DNA of 64,000 bases from Candidatus Latescibacterota bacterium. Lineage in GTDB: Bacteria > Krumholzibacteriota > Krumholzibacteriia > WVZY01. This document shows, piece after piece, positions 2,235 through 64,000 of this stretch (position 1 is its first letter; each line of letters opens with the position of its first letter). The notes beneath the pieces were generated by a model. It was not told the origin of the DNA. It searched no databases and saw only the letters and a list, made by a program, of their open reading frames with translations. The stretch covers positions 160,001 to 224,000 of the forward strand of contig CAWBQK010000015.1 of the NCBI GenBank assembly GCA_963791045.1. The letters are read 5' to 3'. Position numbers and translations under genes: made by a program.

Positions 2235-3467
2235 TCAGATTTCGTTTTGACGCTCCTCGAGTACGAGGGTGACCTGCTTGATGTCTCCCTCGCGCATGAT
2301 ATCAAATGTGAGCCGGTCCCCCACCTTCAAACCAAAAATCGTCCGGTTGGCGTCGCGTGTGGTGCTGACGCCGACTCCGTTCACCGAGGTAATGAGATCG
2401 CCCGGTTTGAGTCCCGCTTTGTCCGCCGGGCTTTCGAGTTGGATTTCCCTTATAAGAAGGCCTTCCTTCGCTTCCAGGTCGAGAGCGGTGGCGAATTCCG
2501 GTGTGACTTCCCTGACGGTGATACCCACCCAGACCTTGCGCACCCGGCCGTACTTCTGGATTTCTTCGAGGACCCACTTGCCGCGGTTGATCGGAATGGC
2601 AAAGCCCATCCCCAGGCTTCCGCCGCCGCCGGCGGAAAAAATAAATGTGTTTATCCCGATGAGATCGCCCCTCGAATCGAGTAGCGGCCCGCCGGAGTTG
2701 CCGGGATTGATCGCCGCGTCTGTCTGGATCATGTCCTTGAATACACGCTGGTCGTTGCCCCCGCCTTTGACATCGCGGTGGAGCGCGCTGATCACGCCGA
2801 CGGTGACGGTTGGCTGCGTATCGCGGAGCAGCTGTCCGAATGGGCTTCCGATAGCGATGGCCCACTCGCCGACCATCAGCGAGTCCGAGTCGCCAAGGCC
2901 GACCTTCGAGTAACCGGCGCCGTCGATCTTGACGAGCGCGATGTCGTAGTCGGGCGCGCTCCCCACGATATGACCTTCACGGGTCTCGCCGTTTTGAAGA
3001 GTGACCTCGATGACATCTGCGTTGTGGACGACGTGTTCGTTCGTGAGGACGTAGCCGTCTTCGTGGATGATCACTCCGGACCCGAGCGATGAATACTGTT
3101 TCTGATAGGTTTCGGGCATTCCAAAAAACTGCTCGAGCCATTCGCGGGCCACCGACGACCGGAACGGGTGCCTCTGGACGACTCTTGTGTAACGCGAAGC
3201 GATGCTGACGACGGCGGGCGCCGCTTTTTCCGTCGCCGTAACAATCGCGTTTCGCCGCCCGCTGGATATCGAGGGTGTCGTTGTGGGCGGGTTCGACGCA
3301 TGGACGTACGCCGGGGTCGTCGATGCGCCGCTATTCGCTTCATCGCCGCGGGAGGCTTTAAAAAAGAACACGCCCGAGACGATTATGAGCCCCAGCGAGA
3401 CGCCGAGCAGCGCCCCGAACACATAAGGTAGAAATTTGAATCGTTTGGGCTGGTCGATGAAATCCAT
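2235..3467 (-). CDS. HtrA/DegP-like serine protease with one PDZ domain
   Basis: N-terminal TM segment, LTNEHV, DIAL, IQTDAAINPGNSGGPL and a C-terminal PDZ (SPADKAGLKPGDLI). Confidence 0.93.
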   Translation of the reverse strand: MDFIDQPKRFKFLPYVFGALLGVSLGLIIVSGVFFFKASRGDEANSGASTTPAYVHASNPPTTTPSISSGRRNAIVTATEKAAPAVVSIASRYTRVVQRHPFRSSVAREWLEQFFGMPETYQKQYSSLGSGVIIHEDGYVLTNEHVVHNADVIEVTLQNGETREGHIVGSAPDYDIALVKIDGAGYSKVGLGDSDSLMVGEWAIAIGSPFGQLLRDTQPTVTVGVISALHRDVKGGGNDQRVFKDMIQTDAAINPGNSGGPLLDSRGDLIGINTFIFSAGGGGSLGMGFAIPINRGKWVLEEIQKYGRVRKVWVGITVREVTPEFATALDLEAKEGLLIREIQLESPADKAGLKPGDLITSVNGVGVSTTRDANRTIFGLKVGDRLTFDIMREGDIKQVTLVLEERQNEI

Positions 3468-3599
3468 TATTGATCACGTCCTTCGCGGTCTCCACGGTTT
3501 CTAATATCCCGGAATTCTTATGATAAGAAATGCGAGGCTCCAAGTCCAAAGCCAATTCTATGGATGGTCCCCGGTTCTTCGCGGGAGCATCGGCGCGTA

Positions 3600-4334
3600 T
3601 CAGCCGTCGTACTCGACCTCCGCCAGAAATAGCCCATTCGGCGGAACTGTCCGCCCGGCGGCCCCACGATCCTTTTTACACAGAATCGCCTCCATATGTT
3701 CCGGTTGCCATTTTCCCCGGCCCACTTCAATCAGTGTTCCGACGATCACACGAACCATATTGTGGAGAAAGTGATCGGCGCGGACGGTGATCGCGATGAC
3801 CCCGTCTTCTTCATCGACGGAGAGCTCGCGCAGATCGCACGTCGGCGGGACGCCCGTCCAGCGGGTCGGCGTGAAACTCGTGAAATCTCTTTGGCCGACG
3901 AGATGGGCCGCTGCCCGCCTCATCGCTTCAATATCGAGAGAAAAAGTGACGACATGGGCGTACCGCCTCCATATCGCCGATGGTTCGGTCCTCAGATAGT
4001 AAACATAACGCCTGCCGGTCGCGCTGAACCGCGCGTGAAAATCGTCGCCGACCTCCTCGACTTCGCGGATCCGGATATCTTCCGGGAGACGCGAGGAGAG
4101 CGCTCCGCCGATCTGCCTGGGAGCCCTGGCTGTATCGACGGCAAAGTGGAACACCTGCCCCAAGGCGTGAACACCCGCGTCGGTCCGTCCCGCGCCATAA
4201 ATTGTAATTCGTTTTTGCAAAATCGATTCGATGGCATCTTCGATGACGCCCTGGACCGTTCTTAATCCCGGCTGTATTTGCCAACCGTGGAAATCGGTGC
4301 CGTCGTATTCAACTTTGAGTTTGAAGTGTCGCAT
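3600..4334 (-). CDS. truA: tRNA pseudouridine(38-40) synthase
   Basis: YDGTDFHGWQ, AGRTDAGVHA, FHARFSA and FLHNMVR motifs. Confidence 0.97.
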   Translation of the reverse strand: MRHFKLKVEYDGTDFHGWQIQPGLRTVQGVIEDAIESILQKRITIYGAGRTDAGVHALGQVFHFAVDTARAPRQIGGALSSRLPEDIRIREVEEVGDDFHARFSATGRRYVYYLRTEPSAIWRRYAHVVTFSLDIEAMRRAAAHLVGQRDFTSFTPTRWTGVPPTCDLRELSVDEEDGVIAITVRADHFLHNMVRVIVGTLIEVGRGKWQPEHMEAILCKKDRGAAGRTVPPNGLFLAEVEYDG

Positions 4335-56727: not shown

Positions 56728-58896
56728 TCACTTCAAAAGCACCATCTTCTTCTTGAGCGTTTGCTTACCCGCGGTCAGCCGGTAGAAGTAGATGCCAGTG
56801 CCTACTTGATTGCCACGGGCGTCCTTCCCATCCCACGTGACTTCCCTGGTGCCAGCGTCGAGCGGCTCGTCTATCAGCGTTGTCACCAACTTGCCTTCGA
56901 TGTTGTACACGGACAGATTCGCTTTCTCCCGCTTCGGCAGCACAAACGATATCGTGGTCGAAGGGTTGAACGGATTTGGATGGTTCTGGTACAAACTCAA
57001 CACATTGAGTTTGGTGTGAACCGTCACTTGCTGGGATATAATTTCAGAACCGTCTTCGAGGCTAACGCTCAGGCGATAGTAATAGTTCGTGCCACCGATT
57101 ACGTCGTTGTGGACGTATGTATTGACGTGCGCAGGAATCAGTCCTTCCATATTGACCAGTTCACCGTACGATTCTTTATCGGCACTGGCGTAGACATTGA
57201 ATCCCTTGACCGCTTCATCCGATAACACCTCCCACGACAGCCCCACTCCCCCATCAAGAGTTTGTGCCACGAAATCGTGTATGAATACCGGCACCGGCGG
57301 CTCAAACGTGCACACGGTCGTGCAAGAATCCAGCCAGGCAGAATCGGGTCCGCTACTCTCATATTCAATAACAGCCTGAAAATTGTCGACCCACACACCA
57401 TTGCCGAATTCCTGCAACCTGAAAAAAGCCTCGGGCTCATCCGTCGGCAAATCAAAGGTATAGGTCCCGCCGGCATCGGAGTTGTCGCCAACCTGTGTAA
57501 AGTTGACCCCATCAGAAGAGACAAATTTGCGCAGGTTATTGGAATCACCCGCAAATCCGACGACGTCAAAGGAAAGGACCCCAGAAGCAATTACGCCCCC
57601 GGGAAAGAAACGAAATGAGACGAACGTTCCACCTCCGCAGGCGAAATCCAGGATCGCCCAGTCATTGTTGGGCGGAAACCCGCCTCCGATGCCTCCATGG
57701 CCAACCTCTCGATCTCTTATCGTGAGTCGCCTTGGCGATACACAATAATCGTTGATCAGTGAGAAAGGCGAACTCAAGCTTGCGTCGACCATATCGGGAA
57801 CACTTCGACCCGCGACGAAGTCATCCTCGAAGCCTTCGAAATAGGTGACCGTGTCGAACGACATCTGCTCTCCAACTTCGAAGACATGGTACGTTATCCT
57901 CTGCTGCGCGAATTCCCTCAGTTTTGGAATAACTAAACCTGCTTCGGGCGGGTAATACGTGTGGCCGGGATCCAACAGCGGGGTCCTACCCGAAAGTGCG
58001 GCGGAATCGCCTTTGTCCACCAGCGTGGCCGGACCCTCCGCTGTCACGTAATAGTCGAATGCCGTCGGATGTTCGGCCTGGTTAGTGATACGAAATCCTA
58101 CCAGGGATAGAGACGGGATGGTTGAATAGCCGGAAATAGACATGTCATCCGGACACGTCATCGAGAACGGGGGACCCACCACCGTCAATGTTTGCGCACA
58201 TCCCGATATCCCCGTTTCCCATACTGGCGCATCGCATGTGATGTGCCAGTCGTCGCCGACATCCAGCCAGATCGGATAGGACCCCGGCGCTTCGAATGTC
58301 CGATCCTCGATTGGGTCCGAACCCCAGGGACCGGGATCAAAGCTGTAGTGGTAGTAATGGATGCTCCCGTCCAGGTCGTACGATGCCGAGGCGTCAAAAC
58401 GGACCGACTCGCCCACGACAACCGGATTCGGAGTGATGGTGAAAGAACAAACGGGCGGCTCGTTGCCCACGACGTAGACGGTGAATTCCCCGGTGCACTG
58501 GCCATAACATACGACCGAAGGACCGGGAGCGAAATACGCCTCATATCTTATCTCATATGAGCCCGTGTACAAACCCGGTTCGTTATAGTAGTGATAAAAA
58601 CTGCCGTAGCAGTCCCCGTTCGAGGAGCTGTTGCCATCACCAAAACTGACCATAACGTAATGACAATACCAGTCTGCCCAATCACTGCCGGGTGAAAAGC
58701 GGACATCAAACCGGAAATTGTCGCATGTGTAGTTGCCCTCCACCGGATCGACACTGGCTGATGGGTGATCGAGGGGATTTTGATCGCAATTGCCTGGAGA
58801 AAACCACTCGCAATTTTGCGCCCCCGCGCCGGACGCGACACAAATGATCGCGGTCACCAACAATGCCGTTCGCGTGAGATTTAACACAAGATTCAT
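56728..58896 (-). CDS. Secreted PKD-domain protein with FlgD-Ig-like C-terminal domain
   Basis: Signal peptide; FGDG...HYY..PG.Y; NEPPVCSF...FDASASYDLDG; ends LYQNHPNPFNPSTTI...WDGKD...GIYFYRL...KKMVLLK. Confidence 0.88.
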   Translation of the reverse strand: MNLVLNLTRTALLVTAIICVASGAGAQNCEWFSPGNCDQNPLDHPSASVDPVEGNYTCDNFRFDVRFSPGSDWADWYCHYVMVSFGDGNSSSNGDCYGSFYHYYNEPGLYTGSYEIRYEAYFAPGPSVVCYGQCTGEFTVYVVGNEPPVCSFTITPNPVVVGESVRFDASASYDLDGSIHYYHYSFDPGPWGSDPIEDRTFEAPGSYPIWLDVGDDWHITCDAPVWETGISGCAQTLTVVGPPFSMTCPDDMSISGYSTIPSLSLVGFRITNQAEHPTAFDYYVTAEGPATLVDKGDSAALSGRTPLLDPGHTYYPPEAGLVIPKLREFAQQRITYHVFEVGEQMSFDTVTYFEGFEDDFVAGRSVPDMVDASLSSPFSLINDYCVSPRRLTIRDREVGHGGIGGGFPPNNDWAILDFACGGGTFVSFRFFPGGVIASGVLSFDVVGFAGDSNNLRKFVSSDGVNFTQVGDNSDAGGTYTFDLPTDEPEAFFRLQEFGNGVWVDNFQAVIEYESSGPDSAWLDSCTTVCTFEPPVPVFIHDFVAQTLDGGVGLSWEVLSDEAVKGFNVYASADKESYGELVNMEGLIPAHVNTYVHNDVIGGTNYYYRLSVSLEDGSEIISQQVTVHTKLNVLSLYQNHPNPFNPSTTISFVLPKREKANLSVYNIEGKLVTTLIDEPLDAGTREVTWDGKDARGNQVGTGIYFYRLTAGKQTLKKKMVLLK

Positions 58897-59532
58897 TTTG
58901 AATACCCCCTCAAGAACGGGAAATCAACAGGCTACGTTTGCCCTACCCTTCAACCAGCCATGTCCGCATTTGCAGCATGGAATTTGTCTCAATGTGTGGT
59001 TTTCATGGTAGCCCAAACCCATGCCGTAACGTGAGGGAGCAAAGGAGGACAGGGGGGGTGTGTTGTCTCAAGGGCGATGTCGTCAGCGTTTGCGTCAGTG
59101 ACTCTTTGGCCCCTCATTAGCGTCTCCGCTGGATCCATCCATAGGCGCGCCTAACTTTAGCACGAGCTTGTGAGAGGGACAACGGTAAAATCACCGTTCA
59201 CTGAATAACAAATGACATGGAACGCCTGACTACCTATAACCTGCCCCACAGCCAAATCCAAAAGGGGGATGATCGCCGAAGAAACACCCATGCCTGCGCA
59301 CCACCCCATTGCGACATACTGGCGATCTTTAAGTGTAAGATAACTGTAAGATGGGGGTTTTGAGGGGATGATGCGAATGCCGTAAGTCGTTGTAGAATTT
59401 GGAGCTGGTGAGCGGAATCAAACCGCGCCCGCAAAATTTGAGACTGCTTGCTCTGCGATGGGTTGGTGGTATATGCTTTCTTTGTTGGGGGGTCCGTTAA
59501 CCGACGCCATGGTTTCTGAAGGGGGGCTTCTT

Positions 59533-60036
59533 ATGAAATTCATGACGATAACGGTTCTTTTGCTGCCACTCTTGTACTCTCAGTCTTTTTCTCAGGCCTG
59601 CACCAACTCTCTGACGCTGGAATGCCCGCCGGCAAACAACGGTGAAGGCGTGTGGGTTCCTGTTCGAGTGACAAACTGCAGCTCAACGATCGATTCGCTG
59701 GAGTTCGATGTCTACTTCTTCGATCTGGATGTGCAGTTCTATACTGTCGATAAAGCGGGTACGTTACTGGAGGATTGGACCTCGGTCGTGGGAAGCGTTA
59801 TCTGGCCGGGCGGCGCCAGAATAACGGCCTTCGATGCGGGGGGTGGATTCGGGCCGGTTGAGGATGAGCTGCTCATCACGCTCTATTTTGAAGTCGTTAC
59901 GACATCGACCAAGCACTCTTCAATTAGATTGACCAGTCTGCGCGGCGACATCATAGGGTTTGAGATTCAGGATTGTATGATGTCTGTGCCGAACAAACAG
60001 AGTACCTGGGGCCACGTCAAGTCGTTCTATGAGTGA
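59533..60036 (+). CDS. Secreted cohesin-like protein with C-terminal TWGHVKSFY motif
   Basis: Signal peptide; VWVPVRVTN...SLEFDVYF...GTLL...LITLYFEV; ends STWGHVKSFYE. Confidence 0.7.
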   Translation: MKFMTITVLLLPLLYSQSFSQACTNSLTLECPPANNGEGVWVPVRVTNCSSTIDSLEFDVYFFDLDVQFYTVDKAGTLLEDWTSVVGSVIWPGGARITAFDAGGGFGPVEDELLITLYFEVVTTSTKHSSIRLTSLRGDIIGFEIQDCMMSVPNKQSTWGHVKSFYE

Positions 60037-60256
60037 TTGCATCATCATCCAGGCCTCGTCAATTGTTACAATGCGTTACAATCCTACCGAGTCGAACCGC
60101 TGCCCTGCCGATTACTATTTGACTTGATGCCGAGTTCCTAGACCATATGGAACCGGCTGGACTCCGGAATTCGTCGTGGATTAGTTTAGGAATGTAAAAC
60201 GTTCCAACTAGAGCCACATGAGTGTTCGCAGCACTCAAAGCAAAAGGAGCCCAGCC

Positions 60257-61354
60257 ATGAGTGAGTATATCTGGATTGGTCTAGACGTGCACGTCGAATC
60301 TATCACAGCTGCTATCCTCGAAGGTGACCAGGAGAAGCCTGACGTAGTTAAGATGTCAGGCGACCTCATGAAGGTCCGGCGTCTTTTTCGGCGGATGGCC
60401 AAGAGGGGGCCCATCCGGGCGTGTTACGAGGCATCGGGAGCCGGGTTTGTTCTGCATCGAGTTCTCAAGCGCGATGGCTTCCACTGCGAGGTTATCGCGC
60501 CGTCACTGATCCCCAGAAAACCCGGGGACAAGAGGAAGACCGATCGGATCGATGCGATGATGCTTGCGAAACTGTATCGGAGTGGCCACTTGACGCCTGT
60601 CCACGTTCCCACCGAAGACCAGGAAGCGATTCGCCGACTCATCCGTCTCCGGTATGCCTATCAAGAACAATGCAAGTCAACCAAACGTCGGATCTCCGGG
60701 ACCTTGCTCTCACACGGCCTGGTCTTTCGGGGAACCAAATCGAAGTGGACGAAGAAACACGTCGCGTGGCTTGAGAAACAGCGGCGAGAACTTACAGGGC
60801 CTGTGCACACGGCGTTAGTCACCGAGCTCGAGCATCTAGAGTATATGCAAACTCAACGTAATGCGCTCGACGGTGATATCGAACGGTATGCCCAAAGTCC
60901 ACCTTATCGAGGGGGCGTTGAGGCTCTTTGTTGTCTGCGGGGAGTTAAGACACTCACTGCCATGACACTCCTTTCAGAAATCGACGATATCCGCCGGTTC
61001 CGTTCACCAAGGGCACTTATGGCGTACCTCGGTCTCGTACCAAAAGAGAAATCCTCCGGGGAGAGAGAGCGAAGGGGATCGATTACAAAAGCTGGAAATA
61101 GTCACGCCAGAAGGGTACTTGTCGAAGCGGCTTGGAACAATCGCCATAGCGCCAGCGCTGATCTCGTCCTGCGCAGGCGACGTCAGGGGCAGCCCCCCGA
61201 AGTGGTTGCTATTGCGATGAAAGCGCAGCACAGGTTGTCACGTAAGTTCTATAGACTCCAGCAAAAGAAACACCCCAACGTCGCCGTGGTCGCCGTCGCC
61301 AGAGAACTATGCGGCTTCGTGTGGGCCATTATGAAAGCAGCGCCTCAGTACTGA
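60257..61354 (+). CDS. IS110-family transposase/recombinase
   Basis: AAGGAG SD; DEDD motifs IGLDVH, CYEAS, KTDRIDA; C-terminal AYLGLVPKEKSSG...GSITKAGN...VAVARELC. Confidence 0.97.
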   Translation: MSEYIWIGLDVHVESITAAILEGDQEKPDVVKMSGDLMKVRRLFRRMAKRGPIRACYEASGAGFVLHRVLKRDGFHCEVIAPSLIPRKPGDKRKTDRIDAMMLAKLYRSGHLTPVHVPTEDQEAIRRLIRLRYAYQEQCKSTKRRISGTLLSHGLVFRGTKSKWTKKHVAWLEKQRRELTGPVHTALVTELEHLEYMQTQRNALDGDIERYAQSPPYRGGVEALCCLRGVKTLTAMTLLSEIDDIRRFRSPRALMAYLGLVPKEKSSGERERRGSITKAGNSHARRVLVEAAWNNRHSASADLVLRRRRQGQPPEVVAIAMKAQHRLSRKFYRLQQKKHPNVAVVAVARELCGFVWAIMKAAPQY

Positions 61355-61576
61355 ACTGAGACGCTGCTTTGAGGAAACCTCGAGAGGAGAGCTGCGGTAG
61401 GAGAATCCTCGTTTCAAGTATGTGGTACGGGTCGTAGACCCTAACCCGCGTTCTCTAGACAGAGGCGGCTCCGGACGAACCACTGGGAATGCGGCACGCT
61501 GTTCACAGCCAACCCGCGGATATCAGTCTGATGATCGTCGGTAATCGCTCTCCTCTCGAACAAAACATACTTGACG
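61355..61576 (+). ncRNA. Putative bridge RNA / seekRNA region
   Basis: Structured non-coding right end of an IS1111-type element, containing segments that match the reconstructed target and circle junction (see findings). Confidence 0.75.
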
Positions 61577-61591
61577 CCAGCCGGTTCCATA

Positions 61592-64000
61592 TCATTTGAG
61601 AAGCACCATCTTCTTCGTGAGCGTTTGCTTCCCCGCGGTCAGGCGGTAGAAGTAGACGCCCGAACTCACGCGGTTTCCTGCGTTGTCCGTTCCATTCCAC
61701 GCGACATCGTTTGATCCCGTGGGCATCTCTTCGTTCACAAGTGTTCGAATCAATTTGCCGCTGGCGTCGTAGACGTTGAGTGTCACCCAACCCGCTTTCG
61801 GCGACGTGAACGTGATCGTCGTCGATGGATTGAACGGATTCGGGTGGTTCTGGTTTAGAACAAGCTCAGAAGCGTCTATTGTGACTGAAATCGTTTGAGA
61901 GCTGATTTCCCCGCCATCGGCCAGAACCACTCCAAGGGTATACTCGTAGGAGCGTCCCGCACCCGTGCTTGTATCTCTGTACTCCCTAACGTCGGTTGGA
62001 ATTACACTATCCGCGTTAATGAGCTCTCTCACACCGTCTTCTCCAGCGCTTCGATAAATCTTGAATCCGATCACTTCTTCATCCGCCTGAATATCCCACG
62101 TGAGTTCAACGACGGATCCCGCGTTGTGGACCGAAAAACTACTGATAAAAACCGGCACTGGAGCCATGAATACAATGTTCGTCGTACCCGTATACACCAC
62201 TCCCGATATTCCCTGCGGAGTCACACGGTACGTTACCGCCTGCGCCGTGGTCTCACTTATAGCGGGCACAGCAAGCGCAGCTGCCGGAGGGGAAAACGAT
62301 TCGCCCGGTGCCAGCACAGGAGTCGTTCCCGCTAGTGATACAGGATCGCCGTTGTCATCAAGGATTGCTGGACCTGTTGTGAGAACTTCATAACGGAATG
62401 AGAAACTTTCCCCCCACGACTTGTTCTCGATACTGAAACCCGAGAGCGGGAGAACTGGAATCGCCGTATAAGGCGCGATAACCTGATCAGCCGGGTATGT
62501 TGCATCCAAAACAACAGGGCGGTTGTAGAACACACAGACCACCCCTTCGTCATCTCCGCTTCCTATATCCTCGTTTGAAGCACCGACAGCCAGATCGTTT
62601 TTGCCATCACCATTAAAATCACCAACGGCGACCGAGAAGCCGAAATAGTCTTGGGGTTCCGGAGTTGCATAACCGGTGTCCCACTGGTCGAGGTCAAGCA
62701 TCGCCCAGTTTTCAAAATAATGGTAAGGAGGATCCCACTCATCCGCAAAAATCAATGTAACTTCGCCAGCGTCGGTATTTCCGGCAGGGTCGGCAAGGTT
62801 ACGTCCGGCGACAATGTCATCATACCCGTCACCGTTTAGATCCCCGGCAGCCAGGCCGTACTGGCCATTGCCTTCACGTGTTTCATCGAATTTATAGCGG
62901 CGAAGAGAATATCCCGTGACGGGGTCCGTGTCCCTGAAAAACCACTCGCCCCAATTAAGGAGAACATCCGCCGTACCAGAACTACCTCTAATGACGAGAT
63001 CTTCATACCCATCTCCGTCAAAGTCACCAGCCGCGAGAGAACAACCGAAACGATCTCCCTCGTATAGATACTTTCTGTGAATATGTTCATAATAGCCGGT
63101 ATTAGATAAATCCTCTATGGCAACAACGATTCCACAATTCTCTATTTCATCAGAGGAATCAAAATCTTTGTCCCACCCTGGAACTCCTATTGCAAGTCCG
63201 TTGTTACCGACGCTGGCTAAGGAAGACCCAAAAAGAAATTCCGGACTAGGGCCAAGACACTCCCAATCTAATAAGAAATCAAGCGGATCCAATACTTCAT
63301 TGGCAAACAATCCGTGTGCCCAGTTACTGTAGGAACTTCCCTCGACAATGGCAACAGTCCCGAGATCATCGTCCTCCCACAAACAGCCGTTTCCAAGATC
63401 TTCGCCCGGCGATCCTATGGCAAGATCATCATATTGGTCGTCGTTTAATTGAACGACTGCCAGGGCGTAACCGAAACGGTCATCTGCCTCGAGGGACATA
63501 TCGCTCATGTCATCTTGGGAAAACCAGACCGCTGATGCGGGTCCTTCGTTCAGGCCCGCAGCACTGCCAAAGATGATGGTGACACATCCCGCATTGGTCT
63601 CCCCAGCAATGTCGTCGTACGGAGCCCCAGCGGCCAGATCGTCGTAGCCATCTCCGTTAAAGTCACCGCAAGCAAGGGCAAAACCAAACTGATCCCCGGC
63701 TTCAATGTTGCCGCCGGCAACCGTTTGAAAAAAATAGACTCCTGGCCAGTCGGGATCGCCGCACAATCCATTCGCACTCCCGTAAGCTATCAAGACAACG
63801 CCAGCGTTCGACTGACCTGATTGGTCCTCAAGCGGGCATCCATTGGCGAGATCCTCGTAGCCGTCCCCGTTGAAGTCACCGACCGCAGTAACCATCCCAA
63901 AATGGTCGTTGACTTCTGGGAGTCCGCCAAAATCAGCCTGAGTGAGCATTGCAGGCGGGAGGCCACTGGTTGAACTGGTCTTAATCTGTCGCTCGTCTCC
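61592..64000 (-). CDS. FG-GAP (integrin-alpha-like) repeat protein with FlgD-Ig-like C-terminal domain (5' end beyond the window)
   Basis: Repeated D.FG.ALA.GDFNGDGYDDLA.GAP; ends NQNHPNPFNPSTTI...SGVYFYRL...KKMVLLK. The frame is open to base 64000. Confidence 0.92.
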   Translation of the reverse strand, partial: GDERQIKTSSTSGLPPAMLTQADFGGLPEVNDHFGMVTAVGDFNGDGYEDLANGCPLEDQSGQSNAGVVLIAYGSANGLCGDPDWPGVYFFQTVAGGNIEAGDQFGFALACGDFNGDGYDDLAAGAPYDDIAGETNAGCVTIIFGSAAGLNEGPASAVWFSQDDMSDMSLEADDRFGYALAVVQLNDDQYDDLAIGSPGEDLGNGCLWEDDDLGTVAIVEGSSYSNWAHGLFANEVLDPLDFLLDWECLGPSPEFLFGSSLASVGNNGLAIGVPGWDKDFDSSDEIENCGIVVAIEDLSNTGYYEHIHRKYLYEGDRFGCSLAAGDFDGDGYEDLVIRGSSGTADVLLNWGEWFFRDTDPVTGYSLRRYKFDETREGNGQYGLAAGDLNGDGYDDIVAGRNLADPAGNTDAGEVTLIFADEWDPPYHYFENWAMLDLDQWDTGYATPEPQDYFGFSVAVGDFNGDGKNDLAVGASNEDIGSGDDEGVVCVFYNRPVVLDATYPADQVIAPYTAIPVLPLSGFSIENKSWGESFSFRYEVLTTGPAILDDNGDPVSLAGTTPVLAPGESFSPPAAALAVPAISETTAQAVTYRVTPQGISGVVYTGTTNIVFMAPVPVFISSFSVHNAGSVVELTWDIQADEEVIGFKIYRSAGEDGVRELINADSVIPTDVREYRDTSTGAGRSYEYTLGVVLADGGEISSQTISVTIDASELVLNQNHPNPFNPSTTITFTSPKAGWVTLNVYDASGKLIRTLVNEEMPTGSNDVAWNGTDNAGNRVSSGVYFYRLTAGKQTLTKKMVLLK

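Follow-up and report, generated by a model that had tools for sequence, protein, structure and literature searches.

The stretch of DNA considered here, hereafter the window, comprises 64,000 nucleotides (nt) from a metagenome-assembled genome (MAG) of a Candidatus Latescibacterota bacterium (assembly GCA_963791045.1, contig CAWBQK010000015.1, positions 160,001 to 224,000). Close to its right-hand end, inspection of the sequence reveals a 1454-bp insertion sequence (IS) of the IS1111 group at positions 60141-61594, which starts with GACC and ends with ATATCA, and which directly adjoins the 3' end of a minus-strand host gene with a C-terminal domain (CTD) of the type IX secretion type. The left flank, ..GAGTTCCTA, has its last base at 60140, and the right flank, TTTGAGAAGCACC.., its first at 61595; the flanks CTA and TTTGAG contain no repeat, i.e., there is no target-site duplication. 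The features of the element and its host gene are the following:

60132-60140, strand not applicable: left half of the target, ending in CTA (60138-60140), the original TAG stop of the minus-strand gene
60141-61594, plus strand: IS1111-group IS, its ends backed by both guide sets and by locus L071 (see below)
60145-60160, plus strand: left subterminal inverted repeat, 4 nt inward of the IS end
60218-61354, plus strand: intact transposase gene of 378 amino acids (aa), identified as an open reading frame (ORF) with domain matches
61334-61370, plus strand: hairpin over the transposase stop codon, 16 nt pairing at 94%, kept in aligned relatives
61571-61576, plus strand: conserved TTGAC(N) directly inward of the right repeat, kept in the alignment of 71 copies
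61577-61592, plus strand: right subterminal inverted repeat, 2 nt inward of the IS end
61592-61594, minus strand: replacement stop codon TGA, on the top strand TCA, the last 3 nt of the IS
61595-61601, strand not applicable: right half of the target, TTTGAGA, read on the minus strand as the final codons (..L-K)
61592-63949, minus strand: host gene, FG-GAP repeats followed by a FlgD_ig/Por_Secre_tail CTD ending in ..KKMVLLK, identified as an ORF with Pfam matches

The coordinates of the initial annotation, which had been made from the letters of the window, all agree with the sequence; its interval 60131-61605 takes in about 10 flank bases per side. Its statement that the IS end provides the host gene with a new TGA (61592-61594) is borne out, as the terminal TCA is the stop of the minus-strand ORF 61592-63949. 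Since the IS adjoins the last coding base, the host protein stops exactly where its paralogues stop.

Assignment to the IS1111 type, likewise proposed at the outset, rests on several traits. The transposase is a DEDD (RuvC-like) enzyme with matches to Pfam PF01548 (2e-17) and PF02371 (1.1e-22) as well as to NCBIfam NF033542, "IS110 family RNA-guided transposase" (261 bits; cut-off 140), and carries the motifs GLDVH (residues 21-25), YEASG (70-74), TDRIDA (108-113), and GLVPKEKSSG (272-281), the last of which conforms to the GL-P----S/TG motif of the group. With 378 aa, it lies outside the family range of 330-350 aa given by Siddiquee et al. 2024 (PMC11187229), a range that is descriptive rather than defining. 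The inverted repeats are 16 nt long and 100% complementary, and the element extends 4 nt beyond the left and 2 nt beyond the right one, in line with the subterminal repeats of 7-17 bp with short extensions that mark the group; from their positions it follows, as had been noted, that a circle junction would leave 10 bp between the inner 14-bp repeats. The transposase gene is flanked by 77 bp of non-coding DNA upstream and 240 bp downstream, and a longer non-coding region downstream of the gene is the IS1111 layout described in PMC11187229. Named IS relatives were not recovered by tblastn against plasmids, which matched only "IS110 family transposase" entries at 43-44% identity that bear no IS names.

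On the evidence set out below, we consider, with a probability of roughly 0.87, that the element is an intact IS1111-group (IS110 family) IS which chooses its landing site by means of an RNA encoded in its own 3' non-coding region. This evidence comes from related copies. Transposase scans of species genomes retrieved 31 loci and those of metagenome contigs 79, mostly at 65-91% protein identity, and the resulting 110 loci (L001, L004-L113) were parsed by conserved anchors. Upon exclusion of loci without these anchors (distant or truncated relatives) and of duplicates (identical first 20 flank bases), 84 distinct loci with guide 1, the first target guide defined below, were retained, 71 of them with the right flank too; guide 1 of the window copy was entered by hand. 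The titled records with copies are MAGs labelled Krumholzibacteriota, Latescibacterota, Eisenbacteria, Gemmatimonadota, Bacteroidota, Ignavibacteriota, and Fibrobacteraceae, together with a few short contigs otherwise labelled. Signs of activity are the intact ORF and near-identical copies with other flanks in contigs of four sediment runs; there, the match begins at 60137-60139 and ends at 61604-61620, and these copies, therefore, lie behind other CTA triplets and before other CTD-like ends.

An RNAalifold consensus of the 71 non-coding regions predicts a compact RNA downstream of the transposase gene, with the following elements:

61382-61557, plus strand: predicted bridge/seekRNA core
61382-91 with 61548-57, plus strand: stem P1, closing
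61400-03 with 61469-72, plus strand: stem P2
61408-10 with 61462-64, plus strand: stem P3
61412-61420, plus strand: first target guide (guide 1), in the 5' strand of the target loop, complementary to the top-strand core TA and right-flank bases 1-5, weakly 6-7
61421-25 with 61446-50, plus strand: stem P4
61429-32 with 61438-41, plus strand: stem P5
61451-61460, plus strand: second target guide (guide 2), in the 3' strand of the target loop, with CTA (61455-57) equal to the targeted stop triplet and GAC (61458-60) equal, in handshake-like fashion, to left-end bases 1-3
61474-78 with 61535-39, plus strand: stem P6
61481-61489, plus strand: first donor guide, in the 5' strand of the donor loop, 61483-61486 being complementary to left-end positions 6-3
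61490-94 with 61514-18, plus strand: stem P7
61520-61528, plus strand: second donor guide, in the 3' strand of the donor loop; its ATATCA equals the IS right end and the G after it the first left-end base

Besides P1 and P2, the fold consists of two homologous modules, in each of which an outer stem leads through an internal loop to an inner stem (UGCGG/CCGCG) and a hairpin. Over the 36 pairs in its seven helices, standard pairing occurs in 98.1% of the alignment cells, compared with 41-58% when the 3' partners are slid; compensatory changes on both sides are found at 13 pairs, and the observed values were reached by 0 of 500 shuffles. Most stems are nearly invariant, covariation being seen mainly in the hairpin 61429-41. 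This hairpin and the CCTC/GAGG stem around it, both spotted in the single sequence, are present in the consensus, and the two target guides, which had been noted to flank the hairpin, lie unpaired in an internal loop between stems that are supported by covariation. A pairing of 61414-61423 with 61565-61574, considered as a guide or pseudoknot, occurs only in the window copy and its nearest relative and was discarded as not conserved. The run TGATGATCGTCG (61529-61540), part of the 3' strand of the donor loop, hardly varies over the 71 copies; positions 61527-61528 directly before it are variable. This run contains UGAUGA, a motif resembling box C of C/D RNAs. A preprint (10.1101/2024.06.21.599552) links IS110 transposases to Nop5 and C/D small nucleolar ribonucleoproteins (snoRNPs).

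The guides themselves were first suspected from one copy, where TTTCAAGTA at 61412-61420 matches the target at seven of nine positions and GTTCTCTA at 61450-61457 resembles the left flank. A 7/9 match could arise by chance in one copy; it is more than that because the same RNA positions track the right flank over 71 loci, with a covariation that exceeds the permutations. Guide 1 is Watson-Crick paired to right-flank positions 1-5 in 48, 67, 65, 45, and 66 of the 71 loci, respectively, while positions 6-7 pair weakly and position 8 is unpaired. Wobble pairs are concentrated at position 1 (15 loci) and position 4 (13 loci), with none or one at positions 2, 3, and 5, and the two wobble-rich positions are the third codon positions of the last two codons. 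Over seven positions, the mean number of Watson-Crick pairs is 4.44 versus 3.36 upon permutation (sd 0.11, maximum 3.76; 2000 permutations), a baseline that is high because most targets resemble one another. The 5' strand of the target loop (61411-61420) terminates in TA, in TA or TG across the family, and this end dinucleotide complements the last two left-flank bases in 69 of 70 loci; at the core, both guides and the flank are concordant in 67 of 70.

Guide 2, in turn, repeats the left flank at -1 (65/65 loci), -2 (64/65; permuted mean 38), and -3 (55/65; permuted mean 30), and weakly at -4 (34 matches; permuted mean 20, maximum 31). The resemblance of GTTCTCTA to GTTCCTA, thus, stands for the CTA but not for the bases farther out, where agreement is at chance level. 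The complete stop triplet is the same in flank and guide 2 in 56 of 69 loci (CTA 28, TCA 15, TTA 11, ACA 2). A mutual-information scan of all columns, for which no positions had been chosen beforehand, recovered the same pairs of guide and flank columns and of guide and IS-end columns. The segments, accordingly, match both target strands, overlap at the joint, and covary with the target, as is characteristic of seekRNAs; they are neither base-paired nor invariant across different targets, either of which the initial annotation had named as speaking against a guide.

Lineages with different guides occupy different sites. The clearest case is a retargeted lineage made up of L010 (copy at 2420-3900) and L065, with guides CTAAACTG and (T/A)AGACAG, both contigs of which carry the non-CTD word ..AAAACTGAGACA / GTTTAG.., the site being read as ..GAGACA / GTTTAG... 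Guides likewise match their own flanks in L014, L020, L053, L063, L094, and L113. Four loci (L022, L037, L038, and L062) share a left flank of the form CTCAAAAGAGAC.GGGACTA, possibly a palindromic element or a terminator located behind CTD genes. Its inverted complement occurs in the right flank of L022, and the guide 2 match there extends over 9 nt.

The second internal loop matches the ends of the element, as expected of the donor loop of a seekRNA or bridge RNA. The window RNA reads ATATCAG at 61520-61526 and GTCTGAT at 61526-61532, and both had been taken to match the predicted circle junction. This is upheld for ATATCAG, as the RNA variants ATATCA, ATACTA, and ATATTA agree with the copy's own IS end in 70 of 72 copies, but not for GTCTGAT, which stays constant whatever the left end and was rejected as a donor guide. 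The left end is instead read by 61483-61486, whose four positions pair with it in 51, 51, 47, and 51 of 63 loci (permuted means about 24-31), leaving left-end bases 1-2 and the core unpaired. Two further positions stand out: base 61527 is identical to the second right-flank base in 60 of 67 loci (permutations: mean 37.7, maximum 48), and base 61460 to the third left-end base in 36 of 60 (permutations: mean 14.6, maximum 26), with neighbouring bases following in neither case. Tentatively, and by analogy, these resemble the handshake guides of IS621.

Concerning the sites themselves, right flanks were translated in frame with the IS end, and tails of at least 35 aa were scored at E <= 0.01. By this measure, 46 of 54 right-flank ORF tails match FlgD_ig, Por_Secre_tail, or CHU_C. 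The eight misses are L012, L028, L031, L044, L049, L053, L084, and L111; three of them are short and end, by eye, in a ..KMVLLK-like sequence, whereas L044 (2867-3196) is a copy at the end of an ORF whose tail matches RVT_1 (reverse transcriptase) and not a CTD. Tabulating the flanks of other copies, as the initial annotation had advised, showed by a simple pattern over the last seven residues a CTD-like end at 56 of 70 distinct sites. The IS terminates in a reverse-complement stop triplet (CTA, TCA, or TTA) in 75 of 76 copies, the exception being CTG in L028. This tip triplet is unlike the targeted triplet in 66 of 76 copies (CTA to TCA 32, TCA to CTA 16, TTA to CTA 12, other unlike combinations 6) and the same in 8, where about 29 same-triplet cases would be expected under independence, although kinship of the copies weakens the comparison.

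Potential landing sites in the own genome of the element (G000) were counted with a home-made hidden Markov model (HMM) of 80-aa CTD tails. The census comprises 106 ORF ends (E <= 1e-3) with the top-strand stops TTA (45), CTA (39), and TCA (22); 14 of the 106 are compatible with the guide when wobble is allowed (YTA + YTTGR), and three unoccupied ends have the sequence CTA TTTGAGAAG, identical to the empty site that is predicted. The proposal of many unoccupied landing sites is, thus, well founded. The specific example given for it is not, since the neighbouring CTD gene in the window, with its stop TCA at 56728-56730 followed by CTTCAAAAG, lacks the required core, mismatches the guide at flank position 4, and is not a target for the window copy.

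A number of observations weigh against the interpretation as a whole. The source MAG (81% complete) holds a single copy of the IS, and only 6 of 30 relatives' genomes carry copies, one to three each. The permutation figures overstate significance because related copies are not independent, and beyond -3/-4 the agreement of guide 2 with the left flank does not rise above chance. While folding of the region, which had been recommended together with alignment to RNA models, gave the seven-helix consensus, Rfam holds no family over the IS; the search of the window returned two chance-level matches (E 4.2 and 9.9), none of them inside 61355-61594. The first core base is unlike between donor and target in 52 of 76 copies, a misfit with the shared-core rule of IS621. 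Of the 70 distinct sites, 14 fall outside the CTD-end pattern, although one of these matches CTD families in Pfam and another was mis-parsed. The word CTA[CT]TTG[AG] occurs 181 times in G000, 9 times at CTD ends, 31 times elsewhere, and otherwise in long ORFs (141 within stop-to-stop ORFs of at least 150 aa, a rough overestimate). Finally, the empty allele of the window site was found in none of the 30 relatives searched with both flanks, that of a related copy (L009) not in two genomes of one genus, which showed no region orthologous to its flanks, and the contigs of the four sediment runs cover the IS but not the window flanks, with neither a contig bridging the site nor a circle junction seen.

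How the predominance of CTD ends arises is the point at which a rival explanation fares best. It holds that the guide sets only a word of about 8-9 nt, that the excess of CTD ends stems mainly from the loss, after insertion, of copies within genes or regulatory DNA, and that copies which hit a stop codon and bring along their own are neutral and persist; the element would then not be specifically programmed for the CTD family beyond this short word. We take this as a serious contender, whose chances fall somewhat short of even. In its favour, pairing ends at right-flank positions 5-7 and left-flank positions -3/-4, and several non-CTD sites match their own guides (among them L007, L010 with L065, and L053). 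Right-flank positions 6-21, moreover, are no more conserved at 55 occupied CTD sites than at 86 CTD ends of G000, so that there is no sign of extra sequence recognition in this interval. A rough neutral filter in G000, however, would leave 9 CTD ends versus 31 other sites outside long ORFs, i.e., about 23%, against 56 of 70 or about 80% in the family; in addition, the guides keep the Lys/Arg-Leu-stop word, with wobble at third positions, across many phyla, which looks like maintained targeting. Of the proposal that the guide is aimed at the multi-copy CTD ends, the occupancy of such ends is supported by the 46 of 54 tails and the 56 of 70 sites, but the roughly 8-9 guided bases alone do not suffice for the preference.

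A second rival, which we regard as quite improbable, shifts the insertion point by one to three bases, for instance with TGA as the original stop and the left CTA as part of the IS, in which case the IS would neither replace nor restore a stop codon. It draws on the missing empty allele, sought in relatives and sediment contigs, and on the first core base, which differs between donor and target. The search with the window flanks in the 30 relatives matched only the repeated CTD part and an unrelated 127-bp repeat and showed no orthologous locus; when the CTD-coding DNA is compared with 31 related genomes, its first 258 nt have matches at dozens of places in every one of them. Because no empty allele was found, the exact joint rests on the guides, on L071, and on the points at which other copies diverge, and all of these contradict a shift. 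Guide 1 complements the left-flank dinucleotide, and not the right IS end, in the 69 of 70 loci given above, the final bases of the IS itself recur in its donor guide in 70 of 72 copies, and the near-identical copies diverge upstream of 60137-60139. Locus L071 (1060-3788) contains two different members of the IS family head to tail, with two transposase matches, and the first member's ...CCATATCA (...ATATCA) directly abuts the second member's GACTACATGG... (GAC...), so that both termini are fixed; the tandem would fit the insertion of a sister lineage at the stop newly created by the first member. Without the CTA there would, furthermore, be no stop at the usual ..LLK end, where paralogues stop. 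At the joint so defined, the base at the left junction almost always matches the target and that at the right junction the donor, and the core dinucleotides of the 76 copies tally as TA/CA 34, CA/TA 18, TA/TA 23, and CA/TG 1.

That targeting is exerted by protein or DNA structure, the matches between the non-coding region and the flanks being by-products, is very improbable: although the RNA is a prediction here and some loop segments are invariant, lineages at different sites show changes at the same loop positions that go along with changes in the flanks, and RNA guidance has been demonstrated experimentally for ISEc11, ISPa11, ISKpn4, and IS621 (PMC11187229, PMC11208160).

For the RNA-guided element, the following course of events may be envisaged. 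The RNA of about 61382-61557 would be held by its closing stem and would expose two homologous internal loops. Through 61414-61420, the target loop would read the top strand, TA plus five bases, and through 61455-61457 the bottom strand of the stop triplet CTA; in the donor loop, 61520-61526 (ATATCA plus G) would recognise the IS right end and 61483-61486 left-end bases 3-6. The target would correspond to the stop codon and the last two codons of type IX secretion CTD genes (..L-L-K-stop), with the guide-target wobbles (G-T, U-G) placed at third codon positions. By analogy with ISEc11 and IS621, the element would excise as a circle, and its transcript would yield the transposase and, from its 3' part, the two-loop RNA. 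In the RNA-protein complex, the donor loop would pair with the circle junction and the target loop with the end of a CTD gene, and strands would be exchanged after the stop triplet. The IS would then join directly behind the old stop triplet and contribute a different stop with its own last three bases, leaving the host protein unaltered. That the RNA is made, binds the transposase, and supports recombination in the manner of ISEc11 and IS621 is what we infer from these systems.

As to expression, neither a sigma-70-like promoter nor an intrinsic terminator was found in the linear IS. The conserved TTGAC(N) at 61571-61576 is, by analogy, probably the -35 element of a promoter that is completed only at the circle junction, where it could join a -10-like GAnnAT of the left end. 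A junction promoter in IS1111 elements is described in PMC11187229.

The machinery is of a known kind. With the seekRNA elements ISEc11, ISPa11, ISKpn4, and ISPst6 (PMC11187229), the window IS has in common the DEDD transposase with the GL-P----S/TG motif, the subterminal repeats with short extensions, the long downstream non-coding region, the order of a top-strand match 5' of a bottom-strand match overlapping in the target, the lack of a promoter in the linear element, and the natural redirection of close relatives by guide changes. It differs from them in that the targets described there are a REP element, an attC site, or a transposon end, rather than the stop and last codons of a protein-domain family; in that the IS end itself encodes a stop codon; in the transposase of 378 aa versus 330-350 aa; and in a left-flank match of only 3-4 nt. 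The bridge RNA of IS621 and the IS110 group (Durrant et al. 2024, PMC11208160; Hiraizumi et al. 2024, PMC11208158) equally possesses two internal loops, target and donor, with one guide per strand, and the cross-talk positions found here may correspond to its handshake guides (PMC11208158). Compared with IS621, however, the RNA lies in the right and not the left end, the repeats are long, neither the core nor left-end bases 1-2 are read by the donor 5' guide, and, unlike the shared CT core (PMC11208158), the core dinucleotide of donor and target is unlike in the 52 of 76 copies mentioned. What is new is the target class, namely the stop of a protein sorting domain, together with the stop in the IS tip, the usually unlike donor and target triplets, and the unlike cores.

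A full-text literature search, in which the two papers containing both T9SS and IS110 were left unread, found no paper that ties type IX secretion to IS110/IS1111 targeting, although the target lists of ISfinder elements that supplement the seekRNA and bridge RNA papers could hold a related case. Members of the IS1111 group that home to one position in a multi-copy conserved sequence are known in IS4321/IS5075 and the IS1111-attC group, the targets of which are non-coding structured DNA, i.e., the terminal repeats of the Tn21 family and attC sites. More broadly, one may speculate that a clade of bridge-RNA ISs across the type IX secretion phyla, whose spread is judged here from record titles, uses a protein sorting signal as a genome-wide safe harbour, that its strand exchange tolerates or even requires unlike cores, and that a layer beyond the roughly 8-9 guided bases focuses it on CTD ends; we hold this generalisation to be doubtful. 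If true, the unlike stop in the own tip (66 of 76 copies) would make insertion scarless for the protein, while the new junction would be no target for the same element.

The case would present a natural RNA-guided recombinase that uses a conserved coding word as a multi-copy, low-cost landing site and carries a replacement stop in its own tip, and, with it, a design principle for scarless insertion at gene 3' ends. About 70 natural pairs of guide and site provide rules for IS1111-type guides with regard to required pairs, places of wobble, and mismatch tolerance in the left flank, and the unlike donor and target cores question the generality of the shared-core model of IS621. In genome annotation, IS copies and relics directly behind type IX secretion cargo genes would be accounted for.

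Independently of the IS, the repeat of about 127 bp that surfaced in the flank search is situated at 59300-59426 of the window, upstream of a 192-aa ORF (59458-60036) with no Pfam match. It has no Rfam match in the interval searched (59200-59480). Four further copies at 86-94% identity are present in G000, three on contig C1 and one at C15:224785, and weaker copies occur in several relatives.

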